In this document: positions 1 through 17,451 of the stretch, in pieces
How the letters are laid out: every line of letters starts with the position of its first letter
Numbering within the stretch: the first letter of the stretch is position 1
Assembly (NCBI GenBank): GCA_049964715.1
Contig: JBMFXB010000001.1
Span: 34,085-98,084 of the forward strand
Direction: 5' to 3'
Source of the DNA: Candidatus Dormibacteria bacterium
Lineage (GTDB): Bacteria; Chloroflexota; Dormibacteria; Aeolococcales; Aeolococcaceae
DNA length: 64,000 nucleotides
Notes under the pieces: model-generated
What the model saw: only the letters and a program-made list of their open reading frames with translations
What the model was told of the DNA's origin: nothing
Databases searched by the model: none
Translations under genes and position numbers: made by a program

Positions 1-1221
1 TTTCTGCAGTGATGCAGCCAAGTCCTTACCAACATCGTGCGTTGCAGAGTAAACCAGGCGTGCTTCAGGAATCCGGCTGACTATCCGCTTTGCAATTCGC
101 TGGACATCCTTCTTCGAGATTGCATTGATTGCAGCAAGGCGAGCCTCTCGACTCTCAAATGGCTTTCCTGCTCCCCAGCGGATGGCAGTAGCAAGACCTC
201 GCATCTTTGCAGACTCTTCCTGATAGCCCATGGCAAAGGCAAACTGCTTCTTTGCATCCGCAATCTCTTTGTCTTTCGGTCCATTCTCTGCAAGGTCAAC
301 GAGTTGTGCAACAGCAGCTGCAAGTGCAGGAGAGCCATTTTCGGGAAGTGCTGAAGTGGAGATGACAAAGGCACCGCAATTCTCGTATCGCTGCGACTCA
401 GCCGTTATACCGTAACACAGTCCAAGCTTTCCCCGCACCACTGCAAACAAGCGTGCAAGCATTCCACCCGAAAGTATCTGCTGAAGCACTGAATCTGCAA
501 GCCAGTCAGGGTCATCACGTGCAATTCCGGGAAGAACAAGCGACACATCAAGCTTGGGCCTATCTCCGGGAATTGGCTGTCGTACATATTTCACTGGAGG
601 ACGTGATGCTGCCTGCCATGAAGGCGCGTTTCGTAGTCGGACTGCTGGACGACCTGGGACAAGGGATGCTGTGCACGCACGTGCAGTCTTCTCATCGAGA
701 GTCATTCCTCCAGTCACAATGAGTGCACACTGATCTCCCCGAAGGAGTTGCTTCCTGAATGCAAGGAGCTCCTCACGTCGAACATGTTCAACAACCTTTC
801 GATCTGGAAGCTCTGCCTTTGCAAGGGAACTGCCAGGTGCAAATGCTGTGGAGAGGACATGGTGTTCTACCCATGATTCAGGATCCATCTGCAGGGTATC
901 GATGGCATTGAGTATTTCCTGACGAGTACTATCGACATCTTCCACAGATGGAGCAGGGTTGTTGACCATATCCCCCAGGAGCTCTGCCAGCTTTTGAAGG
1001 TCTGATGCACGCCCGCTGATCTGAAAGACTGTCGACTCAGGGCTCACCTTCACCTTCACAGAGGCGCCAAGTGCATCGATTTCCTCAAGCACAGCTTCCC
1101 TGTCTGGACGATGTGTTGTTGCTCCAAAGAAGAGTTCCGCAACGAACTGGGTAAGGCCTGTCTCTGTTCGTTTCTCATCACGAGATCCTCTTCGAACAAC
1201 TAGGGTTATTGCCCCCATCAT
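1..1221 (-). CDS. M16 (pitrilysin/insulinase) family peptidase-like protein, N-terminal ~406 aa; C-terminus runs off the window edge. The zinc motif HxxEH is degenerate (TQFVAEL), so it is probably a non-catalytic M16 subunit
   Basis: Manual reverse-strand translation from ATG at 1221: MMGAITLVVRRGSRDE...GLTQFVAELFFGATTHR... This is the typical M16 N-terminal domain layout. The ORF is absent from the track because it has no stop inside the window. Confidence 0.7.
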   Translation of the reverse strand, partial: MMGAITLVVRRGSRDEKRTETGLTQFVAELFFGATTHRPDREAVLEEIDALGASVKVKVSPESTVFQISGRASDLQKLAELLGDMVNNPAPSVEDVDSTRQEILNAIDTLQMDPESWVEHHVLSTAFAPGSSLAKAELPDRKVVEHVRREELLAFRKQLLRGDQCALIVTGGMTLDEKTARACTASLVPGRPAVRLRNAPSWQAASRPPVKYVRQPIPGDRPKLDVSLVLPGIARDDPDWLADSVLQQILSGGMLARLFAVVRGKLGLCYGITAESQRYENCGAFVISTSALPENGSPALAAAVAQLVDLAENGPKDKEIADAKKQFAFAMGYQEESAKMRGLATAIRWGAGKPFESREARLAAINAISKKDVQRIAKRIVSRIPEARLVYSATHDVGKDLAASLQK

Positions 1222-1389
1222 GGCTCCTGGAGTTGTCATGTTTACAAACTCCACACCATTTGGGAGCGTGGTCACCAGTGGGGCGGAATGTGTAGAATCT
1301 GCCATGGAACGGAGTATACCCATTCGTCGGTGCGATGGTCATCACACCAAGGTGACAAGACTCCCTCCGGGATCCGTGAAGGGCGAGCC

Positions 1390-3882
1390 CTACCCTTTAC
1401 TTCTGTCTCTCCTGCTTCGTCGAAAAAGAACAAGCATGCAAGCGAAGACCAATACTAACGCAAGTATCACCACTGCACCACTCTCAACTGGAGAATATGA
1501 CTTCTTTCTATGCAGTGGTTTTCCAGCGTGCTGATTCATGGTAAGGGCAACTGCATGAGCTGGCACAAGACGAACGATAAAAGTGTACGATACTCCATCC
1601 TTGATATAGGTTCCTGCTGCAAGACACTGGCTGGCATTCCCGCAGGTCACAGAGTCCAGAGCGTCCTCCGTCGTTGGCGACTGATTGGCCACCTTTTCCG
1701 TGATCCATGAGGACCCATTCCATGCGATCAGCACATTTCTCGAATCCTGGGTTGCCTGTGTGTTTCCTACGGCATAGCAGACATTCGTGGCTGTACAAGT
1801 CACTGAACGTAGTGTCACTGCCCCTCCGGAATCAGGCAGTCCAATCTCTGCTGTCTCAAGTGTGCTACCTGTCCAGATATCTGCTACGGGCATACTTCCC
1901 GTACCTGTTTCCCGATTTCCCACTGCCATGCATGTTAGTCTCGACAGGCAGAATACTCCGTCAAAACTCCCTGAAAATGATTGATTACCTGCAATGGGAA
2001 TACTTTGCAGAGCAGAACCATTCCACTGAATGAGCACAGGCGTATTTCTAAAACTCCCCACAGCCAGGCACGTACCAGACACTACACAGGAAATGCTCAT
2101 GAGCCTACTGGTATCAGGTGCTGCATGCACCGTCCATGAAGCACCATCCCAAATGGCTACCATCCCTGTAGCAGGATTTCCTTCATCACCGACAGCAGCA
2201 CAAAATGCCAGTGTTGTACAGCTGACTGATGACAACAATCCATTCACTCCTGAAATGCCCGATGATATCGATTGCCACTTGGTACCATTCCACTGTTCAG
2301 CAAGAACGACCTGTTTCCCTGACTGATCAGTGTGTCCAACAGCCACACAATCAGCCGAATCAATGCAACTCACACCTGAAAGCGTCCATGACATCGACCC
2401 TGGAAATCCGACGCCTGAGTAACTGTTCCACCCAGCTCCATCCCCTTGCCCCACAGAAGGATTCCCATACAGAGTATTGGTTGTAGCCTCTGTATGTCCG
2501 GTTGGGTCTGTCATGTCCCCAACAAGCATGCAAAACGCTCCACTGGTACAGGAAATCCCCCGTGCAAAATGTCCCGTACGTGGAGCTGTAAATGGAGAGG
2601 ACTGTATCTCAATGGTTCCTCCTGGTTTCCATACAACTGGAGTTGCACCAATGAACACCACGCATGATGAGGTAGGACAGGCGAGTTTCCAATCGACAGG
2701 AAGGAGTGGGACAGAACCAGGATTCACTGAAGGTTGTGAAATGTTCCACTGGGATCCATTTAAGACAGCCCCAAAAAACTGTCCCAAAGCGTAGTTCCTA
2801 CTATTTGAACTTGTTCCCCCTGCTGCAGTGCAGTAATTCACTGCTGTGCACGTCACTGCATTGAGCCACAGATCACCATGCGGGTCAAGTGATGGCGATG
2901 GAACGATTCTCCAGGAGGATCCATCCCACACTTCTGCAAGTATCCGCTGGAATCCCCCGAGAATGACTGCATACGTCCCTAGGGCAAGACAATATGTTGT
3001 CGTTACACAGGATACAGACGTTATGTCGTCACCACTTGTTGTAGTCCCTGGAGTCTGTAAAAGTGTTGTCTTCATTGTTCTGCCGGGTGTCCAGGTCAGA
3101 ATGTCATTTTCCACTCCTGAACTTGTAGAACTATCAGAAACAAGAAGCATGCACCAGTTGATTCCTGCACAAGAGGCGCTGAGCATTTCAGGTGGGTTCC
3201 TCGTTCCAAAGCCTGTACCACGTGGAAGACTGAGATTGTGTCCATTGCTCCATGATGACCCGGAAAGAATGCTGTACCACGAGGCAGTACAGTCGCCTGA
3301 ACAACCCGCTGTTTCCACTGTCGATCCAAAAGCAATGCACGAGTTGCCACTGCATGAGGCATCCTCAATAGTCTGGTAAAGGCACGATGGTCCGAAGAAT
3401 GTAGTACATGACATCCCTGAAGTACAACCTGGAACTGTACTGCACTGTGCACCTACAACTGCAACTGTATTTGGGGCTGTAGCATTCCAGTGTGTACCAT
3501 TCCACACATACGAAGCATTTCCATATGCAAGACAGTACGTTGTTGATGCACAACTCACACCATTGAATTGCGGGGAGAATGTATTCGATGCCGTGAGAGT
3601 GAGTGCTGTTGACCAGGATGAGCCATTCCAGCTGAGAAGCACTGCTTCATTGTCACCAAAGCTCCCAGCAGCTATACAGAACGATGGGCCCCCACAGCTC
3701 ACATACGGAAATGCAGCAGTTGGATACTGTGCTCCTGTTGGTCCCCACTGGAAAACCCACTGCTCTGGCGTAACTGAACGGGCATCAGCATAGCTGGCAC
3801 TAGCTGAAAACAGCAGTGCTACTACAACGACCATCATCCGAAGGTATTGAAAGTTAGGCAAACGGAAGTGCAGTACATTCAT
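1390..3882 (-). CDS. Membrane-anchored surface repeat protein. Domain order: signal peptide, then ~14 tandem ~50-aa repeats (SCxSxxxCxAVG...WNGSxW), then a C-terminal TM anchor with a basic tail
   Basis: 873-aa ORF. Probable start at MNVLHF/MMVVVVALLFSASASYADA (signal peptide). Repeats seen directly, e.g. VSCASTTYCLAYG...VWNGTHW, SCVTTTYCLALG...VWDGSSW, SCTTLAFCAAVG...IWDGASW. C-terminus ends AVVILALVLVFACMLVLFRRSRRDRSKG. Confidence 0.7.
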   Translation of the reverse strand: MNVLHFRLPNFQYLRMMVVVVALLFSASASYADARSVTPEQWVFQWGPTGAQYPTAAFPYVSCGGPSFCIAAGSFGDNEAVLLSWNGSSWSTALTLTASNTFSPQFNGVSCASTTYCLAYGNASYVWNGTHWNATAPNTVAVVGAQCSTVPGCTSGMSCTTFFGPSCLYQTIEDASCSGNSCIAFGSTVETAGCSGDCTASWYSILSGSSWSNGHNLSLPRGTGFGTRNPPEMLSASCAGINWCMLLVSDSSTSSGVENDILTWTPGRTMKTTLLQTPGTTTSGDDITSVSCVTTTYCLALGTYAVILGGFQRILAEVWDGSSWRIVPSPSLDPHGDLWLNAVTCTAVNYCTAAGGTSSNSRNYALGQFFGAVLNGSQWNISQPSVNPGSVPLLPVDWKLACPTSSCVVFIGATPVVWKPGGTIEIQSSPFTAPRTGHFARGISCTSGAFCMLVGDMTDPTGHTEATTNTLYGNPSVGQGDGAGWNSYSGVGFPGSMSWTLSGVSCIDSADCVAVGHTDQSGKQVVLAEQWNGTKWQSISSGISGVNGLLSSVSCTTLAFCAAVGDEGNPATGMVAIWDGASWTVHAAPDTSRLMSISCVVSGTCLAVGSFRNTPVLIQWNGSALQSIPIAGNQSFSGSFDGVFCLSRLTCMAVGNRETGTGSMPVADIWTGSTLETAEIGLPDSGGAVTLRSVTCTATNVCYAVGNTQATQDSRNVLIAWNGSSWITEKVANQSPTTEDALDSVTCGNASQCLAAGTYIKDGVSYTFIVRLVPAHAVALTMNQHAGKPLHRKKSYSPVESGAVVILALVLVFACMLVLFRRSRRDRSKG

Positions 3883-5168
3883 GTGACATGCTCCTTTCTG
3901 GAATACAGCCAGTACCCTCCTGCGAGCAGTACACAAACGATAATTACTGCAACAACATATGACCAACTCCATGGAGCAGGAAGCCTGATGAACTCCAGCC
4001 TTTCCCTGCACGAACTACAGGAGGAAGCAACAAAAGAGCATGTACTTGGACTTGCACACGGTTCAGAAAGAGCATCAACTTGCGGAACTGTCCTAATCGT
4101 TATGATCTTCCCTGACCCAGTATCAATTGACAGAACTTGTGCTGGATGAACCGGATATTGCACGTCTGGAATAATCACAATGCATGACCCTGAATATGGA
4201 CATGTCAGCTGTGTGTCAATCTGCATATACGAAATATTTCGAAGAACTGTCATGTTCCAAGTGGATCCTGAGATAGTGGCAATGAAGGCGTATTCCCTGT
4301 CATTGAGCCCATTCTGAAATCTTGCTTCACTTGTTCCTGCAACGATGCAAAAAGAGGCTCCTGTGCAGGAGATTCCCTGATACTGGTACTCTGCGTTCTT
4401 GCTTGCTGGCTGTGCAGGTAGAACAGTCCAGCCCGATTCTGAATGTTGTACAACCACAGCATTGCCATTAATAATTCCATGCAACGTTGCTGTATCTGCT
4501 ATGGCATTGCATTCATTATTTCCTGAACACGAAACTCCGCTAAAGCTGTATCCACTGCTCAGCTTCGGAGGCGGGAGCACACTCCACTGGCTCCCATTCC
4601 ATTCTGTAGCCACAGGTTTCGTGAAAACGGTATCCCTGAAGCCTCCCTCCGCATTACCAACGGCAAGACAGTAGCTTCGTGATGTACAACTGAGATGGTT
4701 GAGGATCACGCCAAGTCCTGCAACGTGGGTATCAATATTCTTCCTCTCCCACGCAGAACCATTCCACAGCTCTGAAAATGGTGGTTTTACTCCATTGCTT
4801 CCACCAAGAGACATGCACCAGGAGGGGGAAATGCATACCACTTGGGAAAGTCCCCACGCCCCCTGTAGGTTCTCTGATAACGGCAAGGGTCTTGGGGACC
4901 ACTGTGATCCATTCCACTGGGCTGCAACTCCGAAACTGAAATAGTCTTTATTTGTGTACGTACCAACGGCCATACAAAAGGAACGGGATGTACAGGAAAT
5001 TGCTGAGTACGTTGTTTCCCCATACTGCGTCGGAACTGGAAGGGCGCCTCCCGCAGTGGATACAACTGGTGTTGCAGATCCAATTCCTGCAGTTGCTACA
5101 GTCAACACGAAAGCTAACACAATCAGGGTGACGACAAGACCGAGAAGACGAATGGGATGACGGGTCAT
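3879..5168 (-). CDS. Paralogous membrane-anchored surface repeat protein (~7 copies of the same Cys-pair/WNGSxW repeat). N-terminal TM/signal and C-terminal TM anchor
   Basis: 429 aa. N-terminus MTRHPIRLLGLVVTLIVLAFVLTVATAG. Repeats SCTSRSFCMAVG...QWNGSQW, SCTSRSYCLAVG...EWNGSQW. C-terminus YVVAVIIVCVLLAGGYWLYSRKEHVT. Its stop overlaps the start region of the upstream paralog. Confidence 0.7.
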   Translation of the reverse strand: MTRHPIRLLGLVVTLIVLAFVLTVATAGIGSATPVVSTAGGALPVPTQYGETTYSAISCTSRSFCMAVGTYTNKDYFSFGVAAQWNGSQWSPRPLPLSENLQGAWGLSQVVCISPSWCMSLGGSNGVKPPFSELWNGSAWERKNIDTHVAGLGVILNHLSCTSRSYCLAVGNAEGGFRDTVFTKPVATEWNGSQWSVLPPPKLSSGYSFSGVSCSGNNECNAIADTATLHGIINGNAVVVQHSESGWTVLPAQPASKNAEYQYQGISCTGASFCIVAGTSEARFQNGLNDREYAFIATISGSTWNMTVLRNISYMQIDTQLTCPYSGSCIVIIPDVQYPVHPAQVLSIDTGSGKIITIRTVPQVDALSEPCASPSTCSFVASSCSSCRERLEFIRLPAPWSWSYVVAVIIVCVLLAGGYWLYSRKEHVT

Positions 5169-5253: not shown

Positions 5254-6558
5254 CTACCCGGCAAATGTGTCTACACCAAGCAAGCCACACCCGCAAGTAT
5301 CCCCCGTTACGGGGTCGATAAAGATGAGACTTCCCATCCCCTTACATGCATCATAGGAATCATGGACAAGGGGTTCAGCTGATTGGATTTTCACAACACC
5401 GATTCCATTCTCCTCGATGGAGTCATATGGAACAATGGAACGTTCCTGCAGATCCACAATGCCAACTATTTCAACAACCCGAGCGTGGGTTTCTCTTGTT
5501 GAGTGTCGGAGAATATATCGCTTTCCAGCAAGTAGTGGCTGGGCTGCAAACCAGAGAACAGTCACCTCAAGATCGCTTGAAGAGGCAGGGAGTTTTCCAG
5601 TCGCTATCGTGTCTCCACGTGAAACATCAATATCCTCTGCCAGGGTAATCTGCACGGACTCTCCTGGAACAGCACTGGCTGCAGGACCACTGCTTTTGAG
5701 TATTGCGGAGACAGTTGCACTAATACCTCGTGGAAGGACTGTCACCGTGTCACCTTCCCGCAGATTGTCGCCAAGAACCATGCCTGCATACGCTCTGCCA
5801 CCATTTTTCGATCGGATCGTCCACTGGACTGGCAAGCGGGAGCTTCCTCCTGGGATATGGGAATTTGTAGCTGCTTCAAGACTGTCCACTGCACCAAAAA
5901 CACTAGGACCCGTATACCAGGATGCATGTATTGAGTGGGTTACAACATTATCACCGTACAGTGCAGAGATTGGAACGACAATTGTTGTACGTATGCCAAG
6001 TTCCTGTGCGAAATCTTCCAGTTCTGTTGCTACTGACTCAAATGGCTCCCTCTTCCAGCCAACCCTATCCATCTTGTTCACTGCAGCAACGACAGAAGTT
6101 ATTCCCATGAGGCGTGCAATTGCGAGATGGCGCTTCGTTTGTTCGCGTATTCCCTTCTCGACATCGATAACCACGACAGCCGCATCAGCTGTCGACGCCC
6201 CTGTTGCCATGTTCCGTGTGTATTCGACATGTCCTGGGCAATCCGCAATAATGAGTTTTCGTGTGGATGTTGCTGCATACCGGTATGCGACATCAATCGT
6301 AATACCTTGCTCGCGTTCTGCCTTAAGCCCATCCGTCACATATGCAAGTTCCACTCCCTCAACACCACGCCGTGCACTTGCATCAGCAACTGCCTGAATC
6401 TGATCCCGAAAGAGCTGCTTTGAATCGTGGAGAAAGCGACCAATGAGTGTTGACTTTCCGTCATCCACTGAACCAATGGCTGCAATGCGAAGTAAAGGGG
6501 CATCTTCAATGGTATCCCTTCCTGGCTCTGTCGTACTTGACGTCATGGAATGAGACAT
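5254..6558 (-). CDS. cysN: Sulfate adenylyltransferase subunit 1 (CysN GTPase). No CysC kinase fusion
   Basis: GTPase motifs GSVDDGKSTL, DCPGH and NKMD. Overall EF-Tu-like CysN architecture. Adjacent to and overlapping cysD. Start chosen at MSHSMTSS to abut the cysD stop. Confidence 0.88.
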   Translation of the reverse strand: MSHSMTSSTTEPGRDTIEDAPLLRIAAIGSVDDGKSTLIGRFLHDSKQLFRDQIQAVADASARRGVEGVELAYVTDGLKAEREQGITIDVAYRYAATSTRKLIIADCPGHVEYTRNMATGASTADAAVVVIDVEKGIREQTKRHLAIARLMGITSVVAAVNKMDRVGWKREPFESVATELEDFAQELGIRTTIVVPISALYGDNVVTHSIHASWYTGPSVFGAVDSLEAATNSHIPGGSSRLPVQWTIRSKNGGRAYAGMVLGDNLREGDTVTVLPRGISATVSAILKSSGPAASAVPGESVQITLAEDIDVSRGDTIATGKLPASSSDLEVTVLWFAAQPLLAGKRYILRHSTRETHARVVEIVGIVDLQERSIVPYDSIEENGIGVVKIQSAEPLVHDSYDACKGMGSLIFIDPVTGDTCGCGLLGVDTFAG

Positions 6559-6559
6559 C

Positions 6560-7477
6560 CTAGAAGTACCCTTCACGCTTTCTCTCCTCCATCGAATGCT
6601 CTGAAAATCGATCATCAGCACGGGTTGCACCGCGCTCACTCACATCGGACATTTCTACTTCCCGCAGAATCTCTGCTATTGTCCGTGCAGCAGATGGAAC
6701 TGCAGCTGTGCAGGTTGCATCCCCCACAGTGCGAAAGCGTACTGTGGATCTGGATGTTGCCTCACCGTCTCCTGGCTGGAGAAACTCTGTCACTGCAAGC
6801 AGCATATTGTCACGAAGAACGACCTCCCGTTCATGTGCGAAATAGAGTTCGGGTAGAGCAATCGATTCACGCTCGATGTATTGCCAGATATCCCGTTCTG
6901 TCCAATCTGAGATGGGGAAGATCCGAAGATGCCGACCCTGGTTCCTGCTCATGTTGAAGATATTCCAGAGTTCTGGTCTCTGGTGCCGTGGATCCCACTG
7001 ACCAAATGAATCCCGCACGGACACAATCCGTTCCTTGGCCCGGACCTTGTCCTCATCACGTCGGGCACCTCCAATGAGGGCATCGAAATGGTACTCATCT
7101 ATTGCATCGAGAAGCGTCACGCTCTGGAGACGATTTCTTGAAACTCCATCACCAGGATCAGTGACTCGACCCATGTCAATCGATTGTTGTACAGAGGCAA
7201 CAATGAGCTCTTCCCCAAGCTCCTGCATACATTGATCCCGAAATGTGAGCACCTCTGGAAAATTGTGTCCTGTATCCACATGGAGTACTGGAAATGGAAA
7301 TCGTGCAGGACGAAATGCTTTCTCTGCAAGTCGCAGGAGAACAGCTGAATCTTTCCCTCCACTGAAGAGCAGTGCTGGTCGTTCGCACATTGCTGCAACT
7401 TCACGAAGGATGTATATGCTTTGTGATTCAAGTGAATCGAGATGCGAGAGACTGGACAACGTAGGTGGGGTATGCAT
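6560..7477 (-). CDS. cysD: Sulfate adenylyltransferase subunit 2 (CysD, PAPS-reductase-like ATP pyrophosphatase fold)
   Basis: LTHLDxLESQSIYILREV N-terminus, SGGKDS P-loop, and conserved CysD core. Immediately upstream of cysN. Confidence 0.9.
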   Translation of the reverse strand: MHTPPTLSSLSHLDSLESQSIYILREVAAMCERPALLFSGGKDSAVLLRLAEKAFRPARFPFPVLHVDTGHNFPEVLTFRDQCMQELGEELIVASVQQSIDMGRVTDPGDGVSRNRLQSVTLLDAIDEYHFDALIGGARRDEDKVRAKERIVSVRDSFGQWDPRHQRPELWNIFNMSRNQGRHLRIFPISDWTERDIWQYIERESIALPELYFAHEREVVLRDNMLLAVTEFLQPGDGEATSRSTVRFRTVGDATCTAAVPSAARTIAEILREVEMSDVSERGATRADDRFSEHSMEERKREGYF

Positions 7478-7575: not shown

Positions 7576-8295
7576 GTGCACCCACAGGAGACAAAGATGA
7601 CTCGGACAGCACCCAACCATTCTGTAGAGGAACTCTCGGAAAAGTCTGCAGCATTTGAACATGCTCATCCTGAAGAGATCCTTTCATGGGCAATTGGGGA
7701 GTTTGGGAATAGCATCGTTCTTGCATGTTCATTTCAGGACTGCGTTCTCATCGACATGGCAACAGCAATTGATCCTGCCATCGAGGTTGTCTTCCTCGAC
7801 ACTGGTGCACATTTCCCGGAAACACTGTCCTTCGTCGAAACAGTACGATCCCAATTCAATCTCAACCTCACTGTCACATCCCCGCCTGCTGAAGCTGCAG
7901 CGTGGACCTGCGGCACAGCCCACTGCTGTGAACTTAGAAAGGTTGAACCCCTGCGCTCTGCACTTGCAAGAAAGGCTGCATGGATCACTGCACTTAAACG
8001 ATGTGATGCCCCCACACGAACTGCTGCACCAATCTGCTCTTTTGACAATCAATTTGGTCTCGTGAAAATCAATCCGCTTGCTACATGGTCTGACGAAGAT
8101 GTAGAGGAATACCGTATCGGACACGACCTCCCAGCTCATCCACTCATCGCCAAGGGATTTCCCTCTATTGGTTGTGCACCAACCACACGACCAGTTGCCC
8201 CTGGTGAACATCCCCGTTCTGGACGGTTCTTCGGAATGGAAAAAACAGAATGCGGGCTCCATCTTCCCTCTTCAACTGCTGCATCTCAGTCGTAA
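7576..8295 (+). CDS. cysH: Adenylylsulfate (APS)/PAPS reductase, thioredoxin-dependent, with Fe-S cysteine pairs (CysH)
   Basis: PAPS-reductase fold (ILACSFQDCVLIDMA, VVFLDTGAHFPET). Cys pairs CC...ECGLH are typical of the [4Fe-4S] APS reductase type. Transcribed divergently from cysDN. Confidence 0.8.
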   Translation: MHPQETKMTRTAPNHSVEELSEKSAAFEHAHPEEILSWAIGEFGNSIVLACSFQDCVLIDMATAIDPAIEVVFLDTGAHFPETLSFVETVRSQFNLNLTVTSPPAEAAAWTCGTAHCCELRKVEPLRSALARKAAWITALKRCDAPTRTAAPICSFDNQFGLVKINPLATWSDEDVEEYRIGHDLPAHPLIAKGFPSIGCAPTTRPVAPGEHPRSGRFFGMEKTECGLHLPSSTAASQS

Positions 8296-8493: not shown

Positions 8494-9462
8494 GTGATTC
8501 GTATTCCATGGGTGCATGGGCATAAGTTACAGTCCGATGTAGATTCATCGTGGTATCAAGCGATGACGTCTGGACATGCGGATGATGTTGCGCCTGCAGC
8601 ACACAGCGCCTGGGGACCGGAGTATTGGCCACAGGAAGTGCGCGACAATCTCACAAGCTGGCCACCAACATTCAAGGAACGACAGATCATAGATGCTGTC
8701 CGTACACCGTGGAGTGGACCAGTTGTCCTTTCTGTAATGGGACGAAAGCATGGCGTGGGGAAAAGTACGATTGCACGTCTTCTGCAGCAGATATATGCCC
8801 TCCACCGCAATGACACAATCGTGCTCGTTCGACAACAAGGATTGAAGGAAAGCAGTGTTGTTCCAAGTGAAGAAACGCTTGTACAAGTAAGCGGTACACC
8901 TGCTACTCAACTTTCTTTTCCTTCAAATCCTGCAATGCGACCATCCCCGAACATGACACCTGAAGTGGACCTCATGCCCGGTACAAAACTCGCCTTTGCG
9001 GATGCTCCTGCTGATCCTTCCCGGATCCGTGAACTTCTTGCACATCTCAAAAGGCAGTACTCACTCGTCATCTGCGACATTGAGGACACGACGAATGACG
9101 ATGCTGTCTTTGCATACCTTTCTCAAAGCACACAGATTATCATGGTCGCAACTCCAAGTATTGATGGGGTGTATGCAGCCTCATCTACGCTTGACTGGCT
9201 TCGTGAACAAGGATTTCGTGAACTCAGTGATCAGGCAATAGTCTGCATTAACCAGATCCGAACAATACCTTTCAGCACACTTGTTTCCATAACGCGATAC
9301 TTCCAGCAGCATCGACGCACTGTTGTGCGTGTAGTCTGGGACAGGGCAATTGCACATGATGTCCACGTTCCAGATCTTGATGCTCTCCTGCCCTCAACAA
9401 GGACAGGTCTCCATGAGCTTGCAGCTGCTGTCGCACTTCAAAGTTGTTATTCGCATGCATAA
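8494..9462 (+). CDS. ParA/MinD/CpaE-family P-loop ATPase with ~75-aa N-terminal extension (deviant Walker A: GRKHGVGKST). First gene of the VirB4-centred cluster
   Basis: GTG start preceded by GAGAGGGG. Walker A VLSVMGRKHGVGKSTIARLL. Walker B-like SLVICDIEDTT. MinD-like C-terminal region IMVATPSIDGVYAA. Confidence 0.6.
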   Translation: MIRIPWVHGHKLQSDVDSSWYQAMTSGHADDVAPAAHSAWGPEYWPQEVRDNLTSWPPTFKERQIIDAVRTPWSGPVVLSVMGRKHGVGKSTIARLLQQIYALHRNDTIVLVRQQGLKESSVVPSEETLVQVSGTPATQLSFPSNPAMRPSPNMTPEVDLMPGTKLAFADAPADPSRIRELLAHLKRQYSLVICDIEDTTNDDAVFAYLSQSTQIIMVATPSIDGVYAASSTLDWLREQGFRELSDQAIVCINQIRTIPFSTLVSITRYFQQHRRTVVRVVWDRAIAHDVHVPDLDALLPSTRTGLHELAAAVALQSCYSHA

Positions 9463-9512
9463 TCAGGTATTACATAAGGATAGTGTTTTGTCTCGACAAG
9501 GAGGACGGGAAC

Positions 9513-9803
9513 ATGTGGGTATTGGGTGATGTGAGCTGGACACCAAATCCCAGCGCTTTGCCAGGTTTCGGAACACTGCAGGCTATTACCGATGCAGTTG
9601 GTGCCTATGCACTACTCGGATGCCTGATTGCAATTATTGGTGGTGGGGTCGCCTGGGCAGCTGGATCAAGTTCAGCAAATGCACAGGTCGCAGCAATGGG
9701 CAAGAAGACCGTTGCAGGAGCTATCATTGGAGCACTCATCATTGGTGCATCCTCGATCCTGATCAACTTCTTCTACCATACAGGCCAGACGCTGCAATCC
9801 TGA
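9513..9803 (+). CDS. Small two-TM membrane protein, pilin-like (VirB2/TrbC-like or PrgI/VirB3-like) component
   Basis: ATG at 9513 with AAGGAGGA 7 nt upstream. 96 aa with two hydrophobic helices (AVGAYALLGCLIAIIGGGVAWAA and VAGAIIGALIIGASSILINFF) separated by a short Ser/Ala loop. Position is between the ATPase and the VirB6-like gene. Confidence 0.5.
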   Translation: MWVLGDVSWTPNPSALPGFGTLQAITDAVGAYALLGCLIAIIGGGVAWAAGSSSANAQVAAMGKKTVAGAIIGALIIGASSILINFFYHTGQTLQS

Positions 9804-9838
9804 TCAACTTCTTCTACCATACAGGCCAGACGCTGCAC
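9757..9838 (+). repeat. Perfect 2 x 41-bp tandem direct repeat (tcctgatcaacttcttctaccatacaggccagacgctgca[a/c]) spanning the 3' end and stop codon of the pilin-like gene
   Basis: Copies at 9757-9797 and 9798-9838 differ only at the last base. The gene stop TGA (9801-9803) lies inside copy 2. The alternate-frame ORF 9620..9841 ends with the same peptide (ILINFFYHTGQTLH). Confidence 0.9.
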
Positions 9839-9859
9839 TAAGCCGATTTTGTAGTTGCA

Positions 9860-9893
9860 CGGGCTCCCGAATCCGGGGAGAGACGGGAGTCCG
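9860..9893 (+). promoter_or_regulatory. GC-rich stem-loop (cgggctccc...gggagtccg) in the pilin/VirB6 intergenic region. Possible attenuator or mRNA-processing hairpin
   Basis: Inverted repeat with 8 of 9 positions complementary, plus an inner ctccc/gggag stem. Located 57 nt after the pilin-like stop and ~60 nt before the GTG of the next gene. Confidence 0.35.
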
Positions 9894-9955
9894 TACCGCG
9901 TCGTTGACCTACGTTCGAGGGGTGACGAACACGTAGGAGAGAGCAGGGGGAATCA

Positions 9956-11419
9956 GTGGTGAGATTCGTTCGCTACGTCCAAGGGGCGTACGTACGCATT
10001 GCGTTTGCAATCCTTACACTCGTATGCTGCATGTCGTTCTTTTCCGGCTCAGTAGCAGCAGCGACAGTTGATCACGCCCCGACACCCATTGTTGCATCAA
10101 GTATTTTTGACACGTGTCAGATACCGGTCATTTCCCAGGCATGCAAGACTGCCTCAAGTGCATCAAGTACACTATCAAATCCAGCTGACTCTCTTGCAAG
10201 CTCCGTCGCATCATCTGTCCTAAATGCCATCGATTCCTGGGTAACGAATGCTGCAGTCTGGATCCTTGACAAGATTGTTGCACTCATCAACTCTTCAACT
10301 ACACCTAATCTCTCTGCCCCATGGTTCATGCAGCACTACAGCGTCATGGTGACTCTTGGAGCACTCGTAATGCTGCCGCTTCTCCTTCTAACTGCACTCC
10401 TCGGTGCAATCAAGGGAGATCCGTCACTTCCGCTCCGTGCTGCGTTTGTCTACGTTCCAGTTGCTTGTATTGGCACCTTTGTGTCGCTTCATGTCGTTGA
10501 TGCACTCCTGAAAATTGTGGACTGGATGTGCAGCGTTGTCCTCACAGGCATGAACTCAGATTATTCATCTTTTGTCTCAAACATCAGTACTGCACTCAAT
10601 GGGGGAAATACCCCATCCATAGCGACTCCTTTTATTGCACTCATATCAAGCTTCCTCATTGTCGTTTTTGGCTTTTTCATCTTCATCGAACTTCTCGTTC
10701 GTGAAGCAACAATTTATGCAACTGCCATCTTCATACCTCTTATCCTCACGACACTCGTATTTCCACAGGCATCTCGTATGGCAACGAAAATGTTTGAAAC
10801 ACTCATCTTCGTCATCATTTCAAAATTTGTCCTTGTTGTTGTCCTGTCAATTGGTATTGCTGCGCTCGGGGGCGGAACTACAGGAGGGTTCGCTGCTGTT
10901 CTTGCTGGTGTAGTCATAGTTATCATGACTGCCTTTACCCCAGCTGCAATCCTTGCCCTCGTTCCAACCATTGAAGGTTCAATCTCGACATTTGTCACTG
11001 CACAGACTATTGGCATTGGGGAGGGACTTGTTGCTGCAACGACAGGTGCAAATGTATACAGTGGCATACGGCGGTTCAATGAGGCTCGCATTGCCTCAAG
11101 CTCCGTCACGAGTGCCTCTGCTGGAGCAGCTGGCGGGGCTGCAGGAGGTGCTGCTGGTGCTGTTCATCTCATCGGCAGCCGTGCTGCTCAATCTGGTCAA
11201 AGTTTCCAACAAGGAGCAACCCAACACCAGCCAAACACGTCTGGTGGTGTGGGAAATTCCCAAACTCAAGGAGGTCCGACTGGCTGGCGAGGAGCCCAGC
11301 AACAGTCACCTCAACCCAGAACTACGATCGTTCCCAGTGAAACCCGAGGGGGGACAGGTCCATCGTCGAATGGTCCGTCAGTTCCACCCACTTCGGAAGG
11401 AGGTATGAGTGATGTCTGA
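9956..11419 (+). CDS. VirB6/TrbL-like polytopic inner-membrane protein. Domain order: signal peptide, periplasmic N-domain, ~6 TM helices, Gly/Ala/Gln-rich C-terminal tail
   Basis: GTG start with GGGGG RBS. Signal MSFFSGSVAAA. TM helices such as YSVMVTLGALVMLPLLLLTALLGAI and IATPFIALISSFLIVVFGFFIFIELLV. Low-complexity tail AGAAGGAAGGAAGA...QQGATQHQPNTSGG, typical of the TrbL/VirB6 architecture. Confidence 0.55.
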   Translation: MVRFVRYVQGAYVRIAFAILTLVCCMSFFSGSVAAATVDHAPTPIVASSIFDTCQIPVISQACKTASSASSTLSNPADSLASSVASSVLNAIDSWVTNAAVWILDKIVALINSSTTPNLSAPWFMQHYSVMVTLGALVMLPLLLLTALLGAIKGDPSLPLRAAFVYVPVACIGTFVSLHVVDALLKIVDWMCSVVLTGMNSDYSSFVSNISTALNGGNTPSIATPFIALISSFLIVVFGFFIFIELLVREATIYATAIFIPLILTTLVFPQASRMATKMFETLIFVIISKFVLVVVLSIGIAALGGGTTGGFAAVLAGVVIVIMTAFTPAAILALVPTIEGSISTFVTAQTIGIGEGLVAATTGANVYSGIRRFNEARIASSSVTSASAGAAGGAAGGAAGAVHLIGSRAAQSGQSFQQGATQHQPNTSGGVGNSQTQGGPTGWRGAQQQSPQPRTTIVPSETRGGTGPSSNGPSVPPTSEGGMSDV

Positions 11420-12896
11420 TGATCTTCGGTACCGTTTTGGTCCGCTGGAGCAGCGTGGATTTCTTTTTGGACTCCGAACTGCACAAGTCGGTCTCCTCTT
11501 TGGTGGTGCATTTCTCGGCGTCATTGCCATGCATGCACTGCCCGGAAGCGGTGGCATTGCTCTCGCCATGCTTTTTCTCACAGTAGCTGCTGGTTCATGC
11601 TTCTGGCATGTGAGCGGGAGAAGTGTTGACCAGTGGGTACCTGTTGGTATGCGCTGGCTCGTACGCAAGCTCAAAAGAGAGAATATCCATGTATCCCAAG
11701 CACCACTCCAGGGCCACAGCTGGAAGACACCCCTCATTCCAAAGGATGCACCTCCAAGCCTGAAATCCATCTCCATCATTGCTGCACCCGTAGCAGGCGG
11801 TGAACTTGGTGTGGTGAAAGATGCACTGTCCGGTACATACACTGCAGTTCTTGCAGTCCGTGGCCGCTCCTTTGCACTTCTTGACCAACAGGACAAGGCA
11901 CGACTTCTTTCCCAGTGGGGAGATGTCCTTACAGGACTTGCCCGAGAGGGAAGTCCCATCACACGACTCCAGTGGCTTGAACGAACCTCTGCTGACAGTG
12001 GAGAGACTGTTGCACAGTATCTCCGGGAATCCGTGAAAGGAGACTACACGTCCCCCGCTGTACGAAGCTACCTTCAGCTCATTGAAGAAGCAGGACCAGT
12101 TGCACGCCGTCATGAAACGTACCTTTCTGTGCAAATTGATGGACTCCGTGCACGACGTGCCATTCGACAGTCTGGTGGTGGCGATACTGGAGCATGCCTC
12201 GTACTAGCTAGAGAGATTTATGGCCTTGCCACACGATTACAGGCAGCAGATCTCGATGTTCTCGGCCTACTTACTCCACAGGTACTTGCTGAAACCATTC
12301 GCACTGCCTATGACCCTGCTGCAAAGAATGGGCTCGCCATGAAAAGTGTGATGTACCCAGATGAGATGGGTGTCAATCCTGCCCATGCATGGCCCATGAA
12401 GACAGTGAGTCACTGGGATCATCTCGCTTCTGACAGTGCTGTCCACGCAACGTATTGGTGTGCAGAGTGGCCCCGCACTGATGTCGGTCCCGATTTCCTT
12501 GCACCACTCCTCCTGCAAACTTGGGTGCATCGTACAGTCTCTGTAACGATGGAACCAGTCTCACCGCTGAAGGCCCAACGTGAAGTGGAGACTGCCCGTA
12601 CTGCAGACATTGCTGATGCAGAAGTACGTCAGAAGCACGGATTTATAACCACCATGCGGCGTCAACGCCAGCATGAGGGTGTACTTCGTCGTGAACTGGA
12701 GCTTGCGGATGGACATGCTGACATTCGATTCAGTGGCTACATCACAGTCACTGCTCAAAACCAGGAAGAGCTTGAAGTAGCCTGCAGCGAAGTCGAGCAA
12801 CAAGCTGGACAGTCCCGAATCGTACTCCGACGCCTCTCTGGTGAACATGACGTTGCCTTCACATATACCCTGCCTCTTGCACGAGGGCTCCGATGA
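11409..12896 (+). CDS. N-terminal half of a VirB3-VirB4-like protein: two N-terminal TM helices plus a soluble domain. Translationally coupled to the downstream ATPase half
   Basis: GTG/ATG start overlaps the upstream stop (GAAGGAGG RBS). TM1 VGLLFGGAFLGVIAMHAL and TM2 IALAMLFLTVAAGSCFW. ATGA overlap with the next ORF at 12893-12896. The size (495 aa) plus the next ORF (438 aa) approximates a fused VirB3/VirB4. Confidence 0.5.
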   Translation: MMSDDLRYRFGPLEQRGFLFGLRTAQVGLLFGGAFLGVIAMHALPGSGGIALAMLFLTVAAGSCFWHVSGRSVDQWVPVGMRWLVRKLKRENIHVSQAPLQGHSWKTPLIPKDAPPSLKSISIIAAPVAGGELGVVKDALSGTYTAVLAVRGRSFALLDQQDKARLLSQWGDVLTGLAREGSPITRLQWLERTSADSGETVAQYLRESVKGDYTSPAVRSYLQLIEEAGPVARRHETYLSVQIDGLRARRAIRQSGGGDTGACLVLAREIYGLATRLQAADLDVLGLLTPQVLAETIRTAYDPAAKNGLAMKSVMYPDEMGVNPAHAWPMKTVSHWDHLASDSAVHATYWCAEWPRTDVGPDFLAPLLLQTWVHRTVSVTMEPVSPLKAQREVETARTADIADAEVRQKHGFITTMRRQRQHEGVLRRELELADGHADIRFSGYITVTAQNQEELEVACSEVEQQAGQSRIVLRRLSGEHDVAFTYTLPLARGLR

Positions 12897-14209
12897 ACAC
12901 CCGCTCACACCAACTCGCACATCGCGTAACGACAGCACACTTCCAGGCTGTGTACCCCTTTATCTCTGAGGGAGGACTTGGCGGTCGTGGTTGCTACATC
13001 GGACAAGACCTGTTTGGTGGAGCATTCTGCTATGACCCCTGGGAACTGTATGGACGACACTTGAGTGGTCCAAACATGCTTGTCATTGGTCAGATAGGGT
13101 TCGGGAAGTCATCATTCGTAAAGAGCTATATCTACCGGCAGCTAATCTTTGGGCGTCGGGCTGTCATGCTCGATCCAAAGGGAGAGAATGGAGCACTTTG
13201 CGCTGCTGTTGGAGTTGACCCCCTCAAGCTCCGACCTGGCGGTGAAATCCGCCTCAACCCGCTTGACCCAGAAGTCGGCGATCCAAACAGGCCAGTCGAG
13301 CAGATCACCCAGGATCAGCTCGGTGTCCTGCTTGCCATCATTGCAGCAGCCCTCAATCGTCCGCTCACCCCGGAAGAGCGTGCAGCGTGCGGAGTCGCGC
13401 TCGACAGTGCAAGACAAAACCATGTGGGACAACCCACCCTTCCACATGTAGTCGAAGCACTGCTCTTCCCGGACGATGAGGCTGCTTCAAAGCTGGCAAC
13501 AACGAAGGAACGCCTTGCCACTGGCTCACGCGAAGCTTCCCTTGAGCTTCAACGACTCTGTCAGGGCGACCTCAGGGGTATGTTCGATGGTCCCACATCA
13601 GGGAATATCGATCTCACTTCCCCTCTTGTCTCTTTCGACCTGAGTTCTGTCTACCAGTCTGAGGCACTTGGCATTCTTATGGTATGCGCAGCCGCATGGC
13701 TCCAGCGAGCACTTGCACGTCAGGAGACAACAAAGCGTATCCTCGTTCTCGATGAGGCATGGGTTTGTCTGAGGAATGTCGCCATAGCCAGGTGGCTCCA
13801 GGCATCGTACAAGCTTGCTCGTGCCTATGGAGTGCAGAATATTGCCGTTGTGCATCGCCTCAGCGACCTCTCTGCAGCAGGAGCAGGTGACAGTGAACAA
13901 GTCCAGCTCGCTCGAGGGCTTCTTTCAGACTCGGAAACTCGCGTGATCTACTATCAGGCTCCTGGAGATGTTGCTGTATCAAAGGGCCTTCTGGGGCTCA
14001 CGGACAGTGAAGCAGATCTCATCTCACAACTGCGACGCGGCCAATCACTATGGAAGGTTGGCACAAGAGGATTCCTTGTGCAGCATCGACTGAGCAAGTT
14101 CGAACGAAATATCGTCGATACGGACTTCAGGATGATCGACCTGCCTGGCATGCCAGGTGAAATTGGATCCCCAGCTCATCCGGCAATCCCTCCTGCTGAA
14201 TCTGCATAG
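12893..14209 (+). CDS. VirB4/TraC/TrbE-family ATPase, C-terminal NTPase domain
   Basis: Walker A NMLVIGQIGFGKSSFVKS. VMLDPKGE motif. Walker B ILVLDEAWVCL. VVHRLSDL motif. All match VirB4-type T4SS ATPases. Confidence 0.75.
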   Translation: MNTRSHQLAHRVTTAHFQAVYPFISEGGLGGRGCYIGQDLFGGAFCYDPWELYGRHLSGPNMLVIGQIGFGKSSFVKSYIYRQLIFGRRAVMLDPKGENGALCAAVGVDPLKLRPGGEIRLNPLDPEVGDPNRPVEQITQDQLGVLLAIIAAALNRPLTPEERAACGVALDSARQNHVGQPTLPHVVEALLFPDDEAASKLATTKERLATGSREASLELQRLCQGDLRGMFDGPTSGNIDLTSPLVSFDLSSVYQSEALGILMVCAAAWLQRALARQETTKRILVLDEAWVCLRNVAIARWLQASYKLARAYGVQNIAVVHRLSDLSAAGAGDSEQVQLARGLLSDSETRVIYYQAPGDVAVSKGLLGLTDSEADLISQLRRGQSLWKVGTRGFLVQHRLSKFERNIVDTDFRMIDLPGMPGEIGSPAHPAIPPAESA

Positions 14210-15666: not shown

Positions 15667-17451
15667 CTAAGGATGTTCGTGTACAACTGGCTTCGAAGAT
15701 TCATCGAACTTTTTGGCACACCCTTCACAACAGAAGTAATAGGTCTGACCATCGCGGACTCTTGCAGAAGTGGTTACATTTGGCAATACTGTCATGCCGC
15801 AAATGGGATCCTTCGCCTCAGCAGGAAATGACTCTTGAGATTTCGGATGCTTTGCATCGAATGTCACTGCACACCCTTCACAGCAGAAGTAATACGTTGT
15901 TCCTTCAAACTCCCGCGTCGGGGTCGAGGAATCTGGTGTTACTGTCATCGAACATATGGGATCCACAGCGGACGGTGGGAGGTCAATCATGTCATTCTCC
16001 TTGGTGTGTACAGTTTCCGGGTCGTGCTGTGCATCAAAAATAGCTGCACAGTGTTCGCTGCAAAAATAGTAGGTAATGCCCCCGAGTTCACGTGTAGGCG
16101 GATTCGTGGAGGGATCAACAGACATTCCACAAATGGGATCTATTTCTGCTGCTGACATGTATTCCGGGGATGACACATTCCCGGCAGCAGTTCTCCCTTC
16201 CAGGAATCGATCCTTGCAGCCGTCACTGCAGAAATACCACGTCGTCCCGTCCACGGATGCTTGAGCAGGAGCAAGAGCTCGTTCAACCTGCATTCCGCAG
16301 ATGGGATCCCGGGCATACTTGTTTTCGGAAGCCCACTCCCTTTTTCGTGAAAGCCAAAATACTGTGCCCAAAACAGCACATCCAACAATGTTGAGAAGTG
16401 CTGTACCCACTCCTGGTGAAGCAATAGATGTAGCGAGATAGTGGGAGCTCGGAACGAGATGAACTGCACTGAAGATGAGGTCAGTCGCAAGTCCAGCAAG
16501 TGACATCGTCACCCACAGGAGAGCCACAATCCGCAGGGCAACTCTCCATCCGTACATCCTGCGATACGCAAGGATGAGTGGGAATGCAATGAGGTCTGCA
16601 AAGATGAAGCTCAGGACACCTCCAAAACTTATCCCGCCTACCCACAAAGCAGCTGCAAGCGGCACATTGCCTACAGAGCAGACGAAACTTAGCACTGCAA
16701 TTGCAGGACCTACAATAACATTCTCCAGTAGAGTGACAAAACCATGACCATGAATAAAGGCTGCATTCCAGACTGCATGCGGGACATTTGCCATGATGAG
16801 ACCTGCCACGACAAAGCCAATGAGGAGTTCTCTCCAAAGCATCGTGAGATCTGCAATCGTGTATGTTGCAGCATCAACCCATTTCCGTCGGTCTCGAACG
16901 GATAGGGAAGAAGACGTTACCGAGGGAAGATCGACATGCACTCGGGCATCCTGCTCACGAAGTCGTGCCTGCGTTGCATCAACTGCCCTTCCTCGAAGAA
17001 ACACTACTCCCAGAAGCGCAATGATGACGATCATGATTGCACTACCAACGTACTCACCCAGCAGGAACTGCCATCCCATGAGAATGAGGAGCACAAGGCC
17101 AAGCTCCAGAACAAGGTTCGTTGATGCAACCATGAACTCTATTGCAGCTATCATATCCGCACCACGTGCAATGAGTGCTCGTGTCATGGCTGAAGCTGCA
17201 TATGAGCAGGATGACGAGATCATGCCAAAAAACGATGCTCGAACTGTTGCGCCTGCTCCGTGATTCCCGAGCATGCGCTCCATTGTATGTCGACTGACAA
17301 ACGACTGGACTACTCCCGAAAGGGTAAATCCCAGAATGAGCACCCAGCCAGTTGCCCAAATCATCTCAACGGTATCCAGAAGACCCCGAACGATCCCCGC
17401 ACCGATTCCATCAATGATTGACCACATACCTAGGAGTCCTCTCTGCCACAT
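15667..17451 (-). CDS. Predicted permease (YraQ/DUF318-like polytopic membrane domain) fused to four tandem C-terminal YHS/TRASH metal-binding domains
   Basis: N-terminal ~400 aa is polytopic membrane with GMISSSCSY and CSVGNVPLAAAL motifs. The C-terminus repeats DPICGM(S)xV...Y(Y)FC(S/C)E(G)C...F four times (ICGMQVE, ICGMSVD, ICSMTVT, ICGMTVL). Confidence 0.75.
   Translation of the reverse strand: MWQRGLLGMWSIIDGIGAGIVRGLLDTVEMIWATGWVLILGFTLSGVVQSFVSRHTMERMLGNHGAGATVRASFFGMISSSCSYAASAMTRALIARGADMIAAIEFMVASTNLVLELGLVLLILMGWQFLLGEYVGSAIMIVIIALLGVVFLRGRAVDATQARLREQDARVHVDLPSVTSSSLSVRDRRKWVDAATYTIADLTMLWRELLIGFVVAGLIMANVPHAVWNAAFIHGHGFVTLLENVIVGPAIAVLSFVCSVGNVPLAAALWVGGISFGGVLSFIFADLIAFPLILAYRRMYGWRVALRIVALLWVTMSLAGLATDLIFSAVHLVPSSHYLATSIASPGVGTALLNIVGCAVLGTVFWLSRKREWASENKYARDPICGMQVERALAPAQASVDGTTWYFCSDGCKDRFLEGRTAAGNVSSPEYMSAAEIDPICGMSVDPSTNPPTRELGGITYYFCSEHCAAIFDAQHDPETVHTKENDMIDLPPSAVDPICSMTVTPDSSTPTREFEGTTYYFCCEGCAVTFDAKHPKSQESFPAEAKDPICGMTVLPNVTTSARVRDGQTYYFCCEGCAKKFDESSKPVVHEHP

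Follow-up and report, generated by a model that had tools for sequence, protein, structure and literature searches.

In a 64-kb stretch of DNA (the window) from a metagenome-assembled genome (MAG) of Candidatus Dormibacteria, an uncultured soil bacterium, two adjacent genes on the minus strand, here called A and B, encode paralogous proteins built from a ~50-residue repeat that carries a pair of cysteines and a Trp-flanked Asn-Gly turn. The models of both proteins are β-propellers, with one ring of seven blades predicted in B and two in A. We propose that A and B are coupled, type I membrane-anchored extracytoplasmic β-propellers, which would act as rigid, oxidation-stabilised binding platforms and are probably not enzymes. 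To this reading we would give a probability of roughly 0.62.

Two overlapping genes encode paralogous proteins with predicted anchors

A preliminary description of this DNA had marked positions 1390-5168 as two tandem paralogues, and the range agrees with the genes, gene B running from 5168 to 3879 and gene A starting at the ATG at 3882. The two products match one another in BLASTP with an E-value of 5e-18 and ~28% identity. The product of A is identical to NCBI MGC8460244.1 (830 residues) and that of B to MGC8460245.1 (429 residues, Candidatus Dormibacteria), each of which is named 'hypothetical protein' and is encoded on a contig of 170,850 bp. The features of the two genes are as follows (TM, transmembrane; pLDDT, predicted local distance difference test).

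1390..3882, minus strand: gene A, 830 residues; signal peptide, two predicted seven-bladed propellers and a C-terminal TM anchor
3784..3882, minus strand: A signal peptide, residues 1-33, Sec-type, with h-region MMVVVVALLF and c-region SASASYA/DA, from sequence reading and hydropathy
2572..3714, minus strand: A predicted N-terminal propeller, residues 57-437; blade cysteines 63, 111, 177, 238, 292, 345 and 402
3289..3474, minus strand: A Cys-rich elaboration, residues 137-198; AlphaFold2 pLDDT <50
1567..2565, minus strand: A predicted C-terminal propeller, residues 440-772; blade cysteines 445, 506, 555, 599, 645, 696 and 747
1393..1479, minus strand: A C-terminal TM helix and tail, residues 802-830; TM GAVVILALVLVFACMLVLF (1423-1479), basic RRSRRDRSKG (1393-1422)
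3879..5168, minus strand: gene B, 429 residues; signal or anchor segment, one predicted seven-bladed propeller and a C-terminal TM anchor
5070..5168, minus strand: B signal or anchor segment, residues 1-33; basic n-region MTRHPIR and a 23-residue hydrophobic segment
3984..5015, minus strand: B seven predicted blades, residues 52-395; first cysteines at 59, 112, 161, 214, 268, 323 and 371
3903..3965, minus strand: B C-terminal TM helix, residues 402-422, WSYVVAVIIVCVLLAGGYWLY; helix 402-428 in the AlphaFold2 model
3882-3902, minus strand: B tail SRKEHVT, directly after the TM helix by hydropathy
3879..3896, minus strand: putative translational coupling site; Shine-Dalgarno AAGGAG at 3896..3891, 8 nucleotides upstream of the ATG of A

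A mechanical reading of the open reading frame (ORF) would start gene A at a GTG at 4011 and give 873 residues. The ATG at 3882 is most likely the true start because it overlaps the stop codon of B, has AAGGAG 8 nucleotides upstream and yields, with B, the 830- and 429-residue NCBI products. The overlap is the sequence ATGA at 3882..3879, in which the ATG of A (3882..3880) is interlaced with the TGA of B (3881..3879). The same 4-nucleotide overlap is found in the orthologous loci L081 and L083, where the B proteins are 47-51% identical. As this arrangement of overlap and Shine-Dalgarno sequence is conserved in orthologues of such divergence, A and B are, judging from the sequence, almost certainly co-transcribed and translationally coupled. 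In the orthologous locus L001/L082 (4203-4932) one Logan assembly calls the A orthologue as 588 residues only, and a 196-residue ORF on the opposite strand covers its N-terminal part. An ENA assembly that encodes an identical B protein has an intact A gene of 832 residues, and the short form is probably an assembly or frameshift artefact.

Both proteins had been described as having an N-terminal signal or TM segment and a C-terminal TM anchor with a basic tail. The hydropathy profiles and the two tails, RRSRRDRSKG in A and SRKEHVT in B, bear this out. The N-terminal segment of B, which reaches a Kyte-Doolittle peak of 2.75 and is helical at residues 9-27 in the AlphaFold2 model, is either a Sec signal peptide or an uncleaved signal anchor; the C-terminal TM segment of A peaks at 3.13. 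Orthologues at 47-59% identity, including those of L081, retain all the cysteines and both anchors. Sortase anchoring of A and B was considered and rejected, the sequences SPVESG in A and LPAPW in B standing where LPXTG or LAxTG would be expected, and no TLxTC sortase signature was found within the window. The A orthologue of L081 (11290-13788, 59% identical) ends in KGLATTG-ITVLLVLLGMLGITLVLL-RRKRRRKVAC, which by its sequence is a textbook LAxTG sorting signal of the class E sortase type.

In addition to the cysteines of the repeat, A has four extra cysteines between blades 2 and 3 (C147, C153, C159 and C167) and a further pair, C194-x3-C198, in the loop of blade 3. All eight cysteines of this Cys-rich region are conserved in the 59%-identical orthologue of L081. 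Blades 3 and 4 of the same propeller are degenerate. Blade 7 of B has an extra C-S-S-C at residues 384-387 (4008-4019, minus strand), just before the TM anchor, which is kept in L081. Further disulfides, metal binding or a redox-active CxxC could account for these extra cysteines.

The repeat is statistically secure and matches none of the curated families searched

The repeat unit of ~50 residues reads L-x-G-V-S-C-x5-C-x-A-V-G, followed by a variable loop and then by T-L-A-E-x-W-[ND]-G-[ST]-x-W. A search with the pattern C-x4-7-C finds 14 blade positions in A and seven in B, in agreement with the ~14 and ~7 copies counted earlier. A hidden Markov model (HMM) of the repeat, built from 97 units of eight other proteins with A and B left out, matched A with a full-sequence E-value of 6.4e-77 (13 domain matches, 11 of them significant) and B with 6.9e-37 (six domain matches, five significant). 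It gave no other match in the window. By the measure of these scores the repeat in A and B is far beyond chance. The motif had been called invariant, and this did not hold; it is a consensus, the full W-[ND]-G-x-x-W being intact in ~6 of the 14 blades of A and ~3 of the 7 of B, and the 'AVG' kept in ~5 of the 14 in A. The blades of A are on average 27% identical to one another and those of B 22%, as against 45-62% in typical members of the family.

That the repeat belongs to no recognised family was confirmed, in that neither A nor B has a Pfam or NCBIfam family. None of the Pfam models for Kelch, WD40, NHL, YVTN, PQQ, FG-GAP/VCBS, RCC1, TolB-type and PKD repeats matched A, B or 11 canonical relatives (E<=1 or E<=0.01), which accords with the earlier remark that the unit was not recognised as Kelch, PKD, YVTN or NHL. 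Where such propeller and PKD models do match, it is in some long relatives, as distinct domains fused to the repeats. The match of B to DUF2510 has an E-value of 0.14 and 12.3 bits, against a gathering score of 24, and A has no DUF2510 match at E<=1. Regular relatives show only sub-blade matches, to profile positions 17-34 of the 35 in DUF2510 and to a fragment of DUF6087; summed over the repeats, DUF2510 exceeds its gathering score in canonical relatives. PF26292 and PF28238, two newer Pfam entries with precomputed matches in some relatives, were rejected as models of the repeat, these being faint, spurious matches of PUA_eIF2D and DUF6701_4th. A sequence search of the Protein Data Bank (PDB) with family profiles A1 and A2 gave no chain even at E<=10, and in the open-access literature we found nothing relevant on DUF2510, on the motif or on disulfide-per-blade propellers in Actinobacteria.

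Both proteins are predicted to fold as β-propellers

AlphaFold2 was run with the family alignments and the models were compared with the PDB using Foldseek; the structural results given here therefore concern predicted models. The model of B has a mean pLDDT of 76.5 and a predicted template modelling score (pTM) of 0.76, with seven sets of four strands lying between the N- and C-terminal helices. In A, most of residues 490-775 have a pLDDT >90, with four strands per repeat, and residues 57-135 and 286-470 are reasonably confident.

Every match returned by Foldseek for A or B was a β-propeller, at sequence identities of 8-14%. The best for B was the seven-bladed Ycf48, with a target-normalised TM-score of 0.67-0.69, aligned over its whole length; sialidases, the glycoside hydrolase GH145, the polysaccharide lyase PL25 and CylK were also matched. 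The matches of A were GH74, which has two tandem seven-bladed propellers, SorCS2/sortilin, LRP6 and Ycf48. The DSSP strands, together with the superposition of B on Ycf48, predict four-stranded antiparallel blades in a closed ring. As the models place four strands in each unit and only propellers are returned, the suggestion that the repeats are β-propeller blades is supported at the level of the models.

Blade anatomy and a predicted disulfide staple

The DSSP strings of the models were combined with statistics over the family, covering 2,995 Cys pairs and 2,620 hairpins. In the model of B, strand 1 ends with L-x-G-V-S-C and strand 2 begins with C-x-A-V-G, so that C-x5-C brackets the β1-β2 turn. 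The spacing between the cysteines is five in 2,873 of the 2,995 pairs (96%). Strand 3 (T-L-A-E-x-W) and strand 4 (W-x-[ILV]-Q) are joined by a turn of Asn (74%) or Asp (20%), Gly (100%), Thr or Ser, and any residue. In the B model W85 closes strand 3 and W90 opens strand 4, and the other blades are built likewise. Sequence entropy and indels are concentrated in the β2-β3 loop and in the linker from β4 to the next β1. From propeller topology, the models would therefore place both conserved hairpins on the same face and the two hypervariable segments on the opposite face. The conservation of the N-G-[ST] sequence might have been attributed to N-glycosylation of the sequon. This was rejected because Asp replaces Asn in 20% of the hairpins, which together with the invariant Gly fits a type I' turn.

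The only invariant columns in alignments of 121, 41 and 28 sequences are Cys, Trp and Gly, and both cysteines of the pair are invariant or nearly so. Outside the TM helices A has 34 cysteines and B has 16, both even numbers. Given these counts, the near-invariance of the pair, its spacing of five, its position on either side of a turn and the secreted location, it would seem likely that each C-x5-C forms one cross-strand disulfide staple per blade.

A and B belong to a very large, mostly secreted family

Word-index searches gave 364 and 239 homologues, and homologues over the whole protein match A and B at 25-36% identity, with E-values of 1e-101 to 1e-56. When 1.84 billion representatives of clusters at 50% identity were searched with a profile, 55,880 matched at E<=1e-3, 40,056 at E<=1e-10 and 20,211 at E<=1e-30. 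The family, whose distribution the preliminary description had left for a search to establish, is thus by no means a rare one and exceeds 55,000 clusters.

GTDB species genomes were scanned with a single regular member, P0068, as the query, and the best 78 of at least 529 confirmed stretches were classified. These 78 loci are all from MAGs, several of which have more than one locus. They comprise ~20 from Solirubrobacterales, 18 from Acidimicrobiia, 24 from unclassified Actinomycetota, 5 from Streptosporangiaceae, 1 from Pseudonocardiales, 3 from Dormibacterota, 3 from Chloroflexi and 4 from bins with other labels. The genome matches retrieved are from soil Actinomycetota and Dormibacterota/Chloroflexota MAGs.

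The lengths of family members cluster at ~380-430 residues (~400, seven blades) and at 700-800 residues (~730, 14 blades), and B with seven blades and A with 14 conform to these multiples of seven. The majority of members carry a signal peptide but lack a C-terminal anchor, the TM anchor being confined to the Dormibacteria orthologues of A and B. In the long members the repeats are joined to other modules, all of them extracellular: fn3 (in 10 of 28), Ig/PKD/TIG, dockerin, subtilase S8 or other propellers. P0068, P0003 and many other relatives have 9-15 blades at 45-62% mutual identity, which suggests that their blades were recently amplified. Those of A and B are old, diverged copies (22-27%), so that the family spans blades from near-identical to degenerate. 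Within this very large and otherwise mostly secreted family of seven and 14 blades, A and B form a diverged branch that is tethered to the membrane and specific to Dormibacteria.

Proposed role

In the arrangement that we propose, both proteins would be exported by the Sec pathway and tethered by the C-terminal helix, leaving a short basic tail in the cytoplasm. One coupled message would give rise to both, B displaying one seven-bladed propeller and A two on the outer side of the cytoplasmic membrane, where the two proteins may associate. Dormibacterota, which are related to Chloroflexota, are probably monoderm, in which case A and B would be surface proteins. Two features would lock each blade, the disulfide of the inner hairpin and, in the outer one, the Asn-Gly turn between two Trp. 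Ligand specificity would come from the variable loops of the opposite face, the usual ligand-binding face of a propeller, and the role would be that of a lectin-, adhesin- or receptor-like binding scaffold. We favour a scaffold over an enzyme because there is no polar residue that is invariant across the family and because of the pattern of domain fusions.

Several observations weigh against this proposal. In the model of A, residues 137-282 (146 residues) are poorly modelled with very low confidence, and the last blade of B is predicted with only moderate confidence. The total number of cysteines is odd in ~28% of family proteins, in raw counts that include signal peptides and fragments. No neighbour that recurs among the 78 family loci points to a ligand. 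Several of the best structural matches (sialidases, GH74, GH145, PL25 and CylK) are enzymes. Active sites of propellers are often not repeated in each blade, and A and B, for which only three or four orthologues were compared, may have a lineage-specific catalytic site.

Genomic neighbourhood

The genes around A and B within the window are listed below.

1..1323, minus strand: M16 peptidase homologue, downstream of A and cut by the end of the window; Peptidase_M16 3e-20, M16_C 3.7e-25
5254-7477, minus strand: cysD and cysN (EF-Tu-like GTPase domain), directly upstream of B on the same strand
7576-8295, plus strand: cysH, sulfate assimilation, on the strand opposite to A and B
8494-14209, plus strand: divergent cluster encoding a 322-residue P-loop protein (GVGKST), a 487-residue protein of no assigned family, a 495-residue EccE-like protein and a 438-residue AAA_10/TraG-type P-loop ATPase

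The M16 homologue had been called probably non-catalytic. It has M16 and M16_C domains, and HxxEH is absent from its 441 residues in the window, GLTQFVAELFFGAT being found at the expected place, which agrees with that view. In L081 the full-length orthologue, M16a, also has no HxxEH, and the next gene, M16b, has HFEEH. Heterodimeric M16B peptidases pair an active with an inactive subunit, and the neighbours of A and B resemble them in that an inactive M16 gene is followed by one with HFEEH in the orthologous loci. By analogy, and on the strength of those loci as the active partner would lie outside the window, the M16 homologue here is probably the inactive subunit of such a heterodimer.

The gene order cysD-cysN-B-A-M16 (inactive)-M16 (HFEEH)-ABC (ATP-binding cassette) ATPase-ABC2 permease lies on one strand with short gaps and is conserved, including the cys genes beside A and B, in three Dormibacteria lineages in which the B proteins are 47-51% identical. 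A link of cysD and cysN to the Cys-rich A and B (34 and 16 extracytoplasmic cysteines) was considered and set aside, adjacency being all that speaks for it. Promoter and terminator scans found fewer sites than in shuffled controls. When 572 ORFs neighbouring the 78 family loci were clustered, the only recurrent neighbour was a LuxR/LAL-like regulator, at nine loci. With no recurring neighbour across the 78 loci to tie them to a partner, the propeller proteins look functionally autonomous.

In the divergent cluster the 495-residue protein matches EccE (PF11203) with an E-value of 6.5e-8, and the cluster as a whole resembles a Dormibacteria secretion module of a type VII-like or conjugation-like kind. 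It recurs in L081, where it adjoins cysH together with a DUF6112 gene. Further along the window, a 594-residue protein (15667-17451, minus strand) joins an ArsP-type permease to four YHS/TRASH metal-binding domains and is an unusual permease with a metal-sensing tail.

Alternative explanations

Of the other explanations the strongest, which is possible though unlikely, is that A and B are distant, motif-shifted members of the Asp-box (BNR) supercluster and that WNGxxW is a contracted Asp-box. The Asp-box has the form x-x-S-x-D-x-G-x-T-W, with an obligatory D/n at position 5, and makes a hairpin of 8:8 or 7:7 type between strands 3 and 4; a 'short Asp-box' is S/t-x-D/n-x-x-x-W (PMC2716378). The conserved hairpin of A and B is at β3-β4, exactly the site of the Asp-box, its [ND]-x-x-x-W spacing equals that of the short form, and the best structural matches are mostly Asp-box propellers (Ycf48, sialidases, GH74 and Vps10/SorCS2). 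When the motifs are aligned on the Gly, however, Trp takes the place of the obligatory D/n in 96% of the 2,620 hairpins and the S/t position is unconserved (R, V, S, A, T). The modelled turn has four residues rather than an 8:8 or 7:7 hairpin, and the BNR, PSII_BNR and Sortilin models of Pfam have no match in A, B or their relatives at E<=1. The remark in the preliminary description that the repeat is not recognisable as BNR/Asp-box therefore stands as far as the motif is concerned and does not stand for the structure, since the closest structural neighbours are propellers of the Asp-box type.

A broader reading, put forward tentatively and in our view doubtful, would make the C-x5-C/WNGxxW blade an independent, major and uncatalogued lineage of propellers in which all blades are stapled, with A and B forming a receptor hetero-complex together with the M16B protease and the ABC exporter. 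In the same reading the family would be one of hyper-stable extracellular scaffolds, of tens of thousands of clusters and with several paralogues per genome, mainly from uncultured soil monoderms (Actinomycetota and Dormibacterota).

It is improbable, in our judgement, that A or B or both are propeller enzymes that act on an extracellular polymer, for instance as a glycoside hydrolase, polysaccharide lyase or alkylating enzyme. Sialidases, GH74, GH145 BT3686, PL25 ulvan lyase and CylK are matched by Foldseek at E-values of 1e-7 to 1e-6, and the GH74 xyloglucanases, like A, consist of two tandem seven-bladed propellers. Yet these matches have 8-14% sequence identity and no CAZy-related Pfam or NCBIfam model is matched. 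One Ser, that of V-S-C, is the sole polar residue among the invariant and near-invariant columns. Ycf48, which gives the strongest structural match, is an assembly factor and not an enzyme, and the fusion of family members with binding modules, or with a distinct catalytic domain such as subtilase, suggests that the propeller itself is non-catalytic.

We are equally sceptical that A and B are the surface part of a peptide-processing or export module with the M16B pair and the ABC-2 exporter, for example capturing or presenting a secreted peptide or product. The same-strand gene order kept in three Dormibacteria lineages would be expected of such a module, as would the lack of a convincing terminator between A and the M16 gene. 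However, this synteny is seen within one class only and may be simple inheritance, and no M16 or ABC neighbour recurs among the 78 loci of the wider family. By visual inspection of their N-termini the M16 proteins of L081 have no signal peptide, which would leave them in the cytoplasm while the propellers are outside.

That the repeats do not form closed propellers, or that the ORFs are unexpressed and the pattern is a low-complexity or compositional artefact, might be argued from the low-confidence stretch of 146 residues in A and from the degeneracy of the blades (22-27% identity), but is effectively refuted already by the HMM score of A (6.4e-77), the tens of thousands of homologues, the retention of all cysteines and both anchors in orthologues at 47-59% identity, the pTM of 0.76 and the full-length superposition on seven-bladed propellers.

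Significance

The anchored, coupled binding platforms proposed here combine a familiar fold with a new type of blade, one that is in none of Pfam, NCBIfam, the PDB sequences and the open-access literature searched. This undescribed blade makes up no fewer than 20,000-55,000 clusters at 50% identity, and the genome matches examined come from soil lineages that are abundant but uncultured. With a curated model of it, a very large block of the 'hypothetical proteins' of soil metagenomes could be relabelled as 'secreted disulfide-stapled beta-propeller', and ligand discovery would be pointed to what is probably a major class of binding proteins, at the surface or extracellular, in Actinomycetota and Dormibacterota. 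Studies of propeller amplification would gain a lineage that holds both near-identical and fully diverged blades. For the window itself, two unannotated genes are explained and there is no new mechanism or new kind of system.

Comparison with known propellers

The propellers closest to A and B in structure are those of the Asp-box type, Ycf48/HCF136, the GH33 sialidases, GH74 and Vps10/sortilin, which share with the models of A and B four-stranded blades in closed rings and give the best Foldseek matches. A and B also have, as these do, just one aromatic hairpin that is strongly conserved, placed between strands 3 and 4 and ending in G-x-[ST/x]-W. The families differ in the motif itself, which in the A/B family is E-x-W-[ND]-G-[ST]-x-W with its Trp at the D/n position, and in the C-x5-C that the A/B blades add at the β1-β2 turn. 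They differ too in regularity, Asp-box propellers being characteristically irregular (PMC2716378) whereas the blades of the A/B family are regular.

Among curated models only DUF2510 (PF10708), of 35 residues, gives a signal, and it is positions 17-34 (R-Y-W-D-G-x-x-W-T-like) that match the β3-β4 hairpin. Unlike a model of the blade, this match spans ~17 of the ~50 residues and leaves the C-x5-C half uncovered. DUF2510 is regarded as a small stand-alone domain and not as the blade of a propeller.

Highly repetitive bacterial β-propellers amplified from single blades were surveyed by Pereira and Lupas 2022, who classed them as WD40, VCBS, Asp-box, other ECOD families and an 'UNKNOWN' bin, and who named Actinobacteria and Chloroflexi as rich in recently amplified propellers (PMC9218822). 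We found no description of the Cys-pair/WNGxxW blade in that work (PMC9218822). The canonical relatives of A and B, with 9-15 blades at 45-62% identity and from the same phyla, are like these amplified propellers, whereas A and B themselves, with blades at 22-27% identity, differ from them in being old and diverged.

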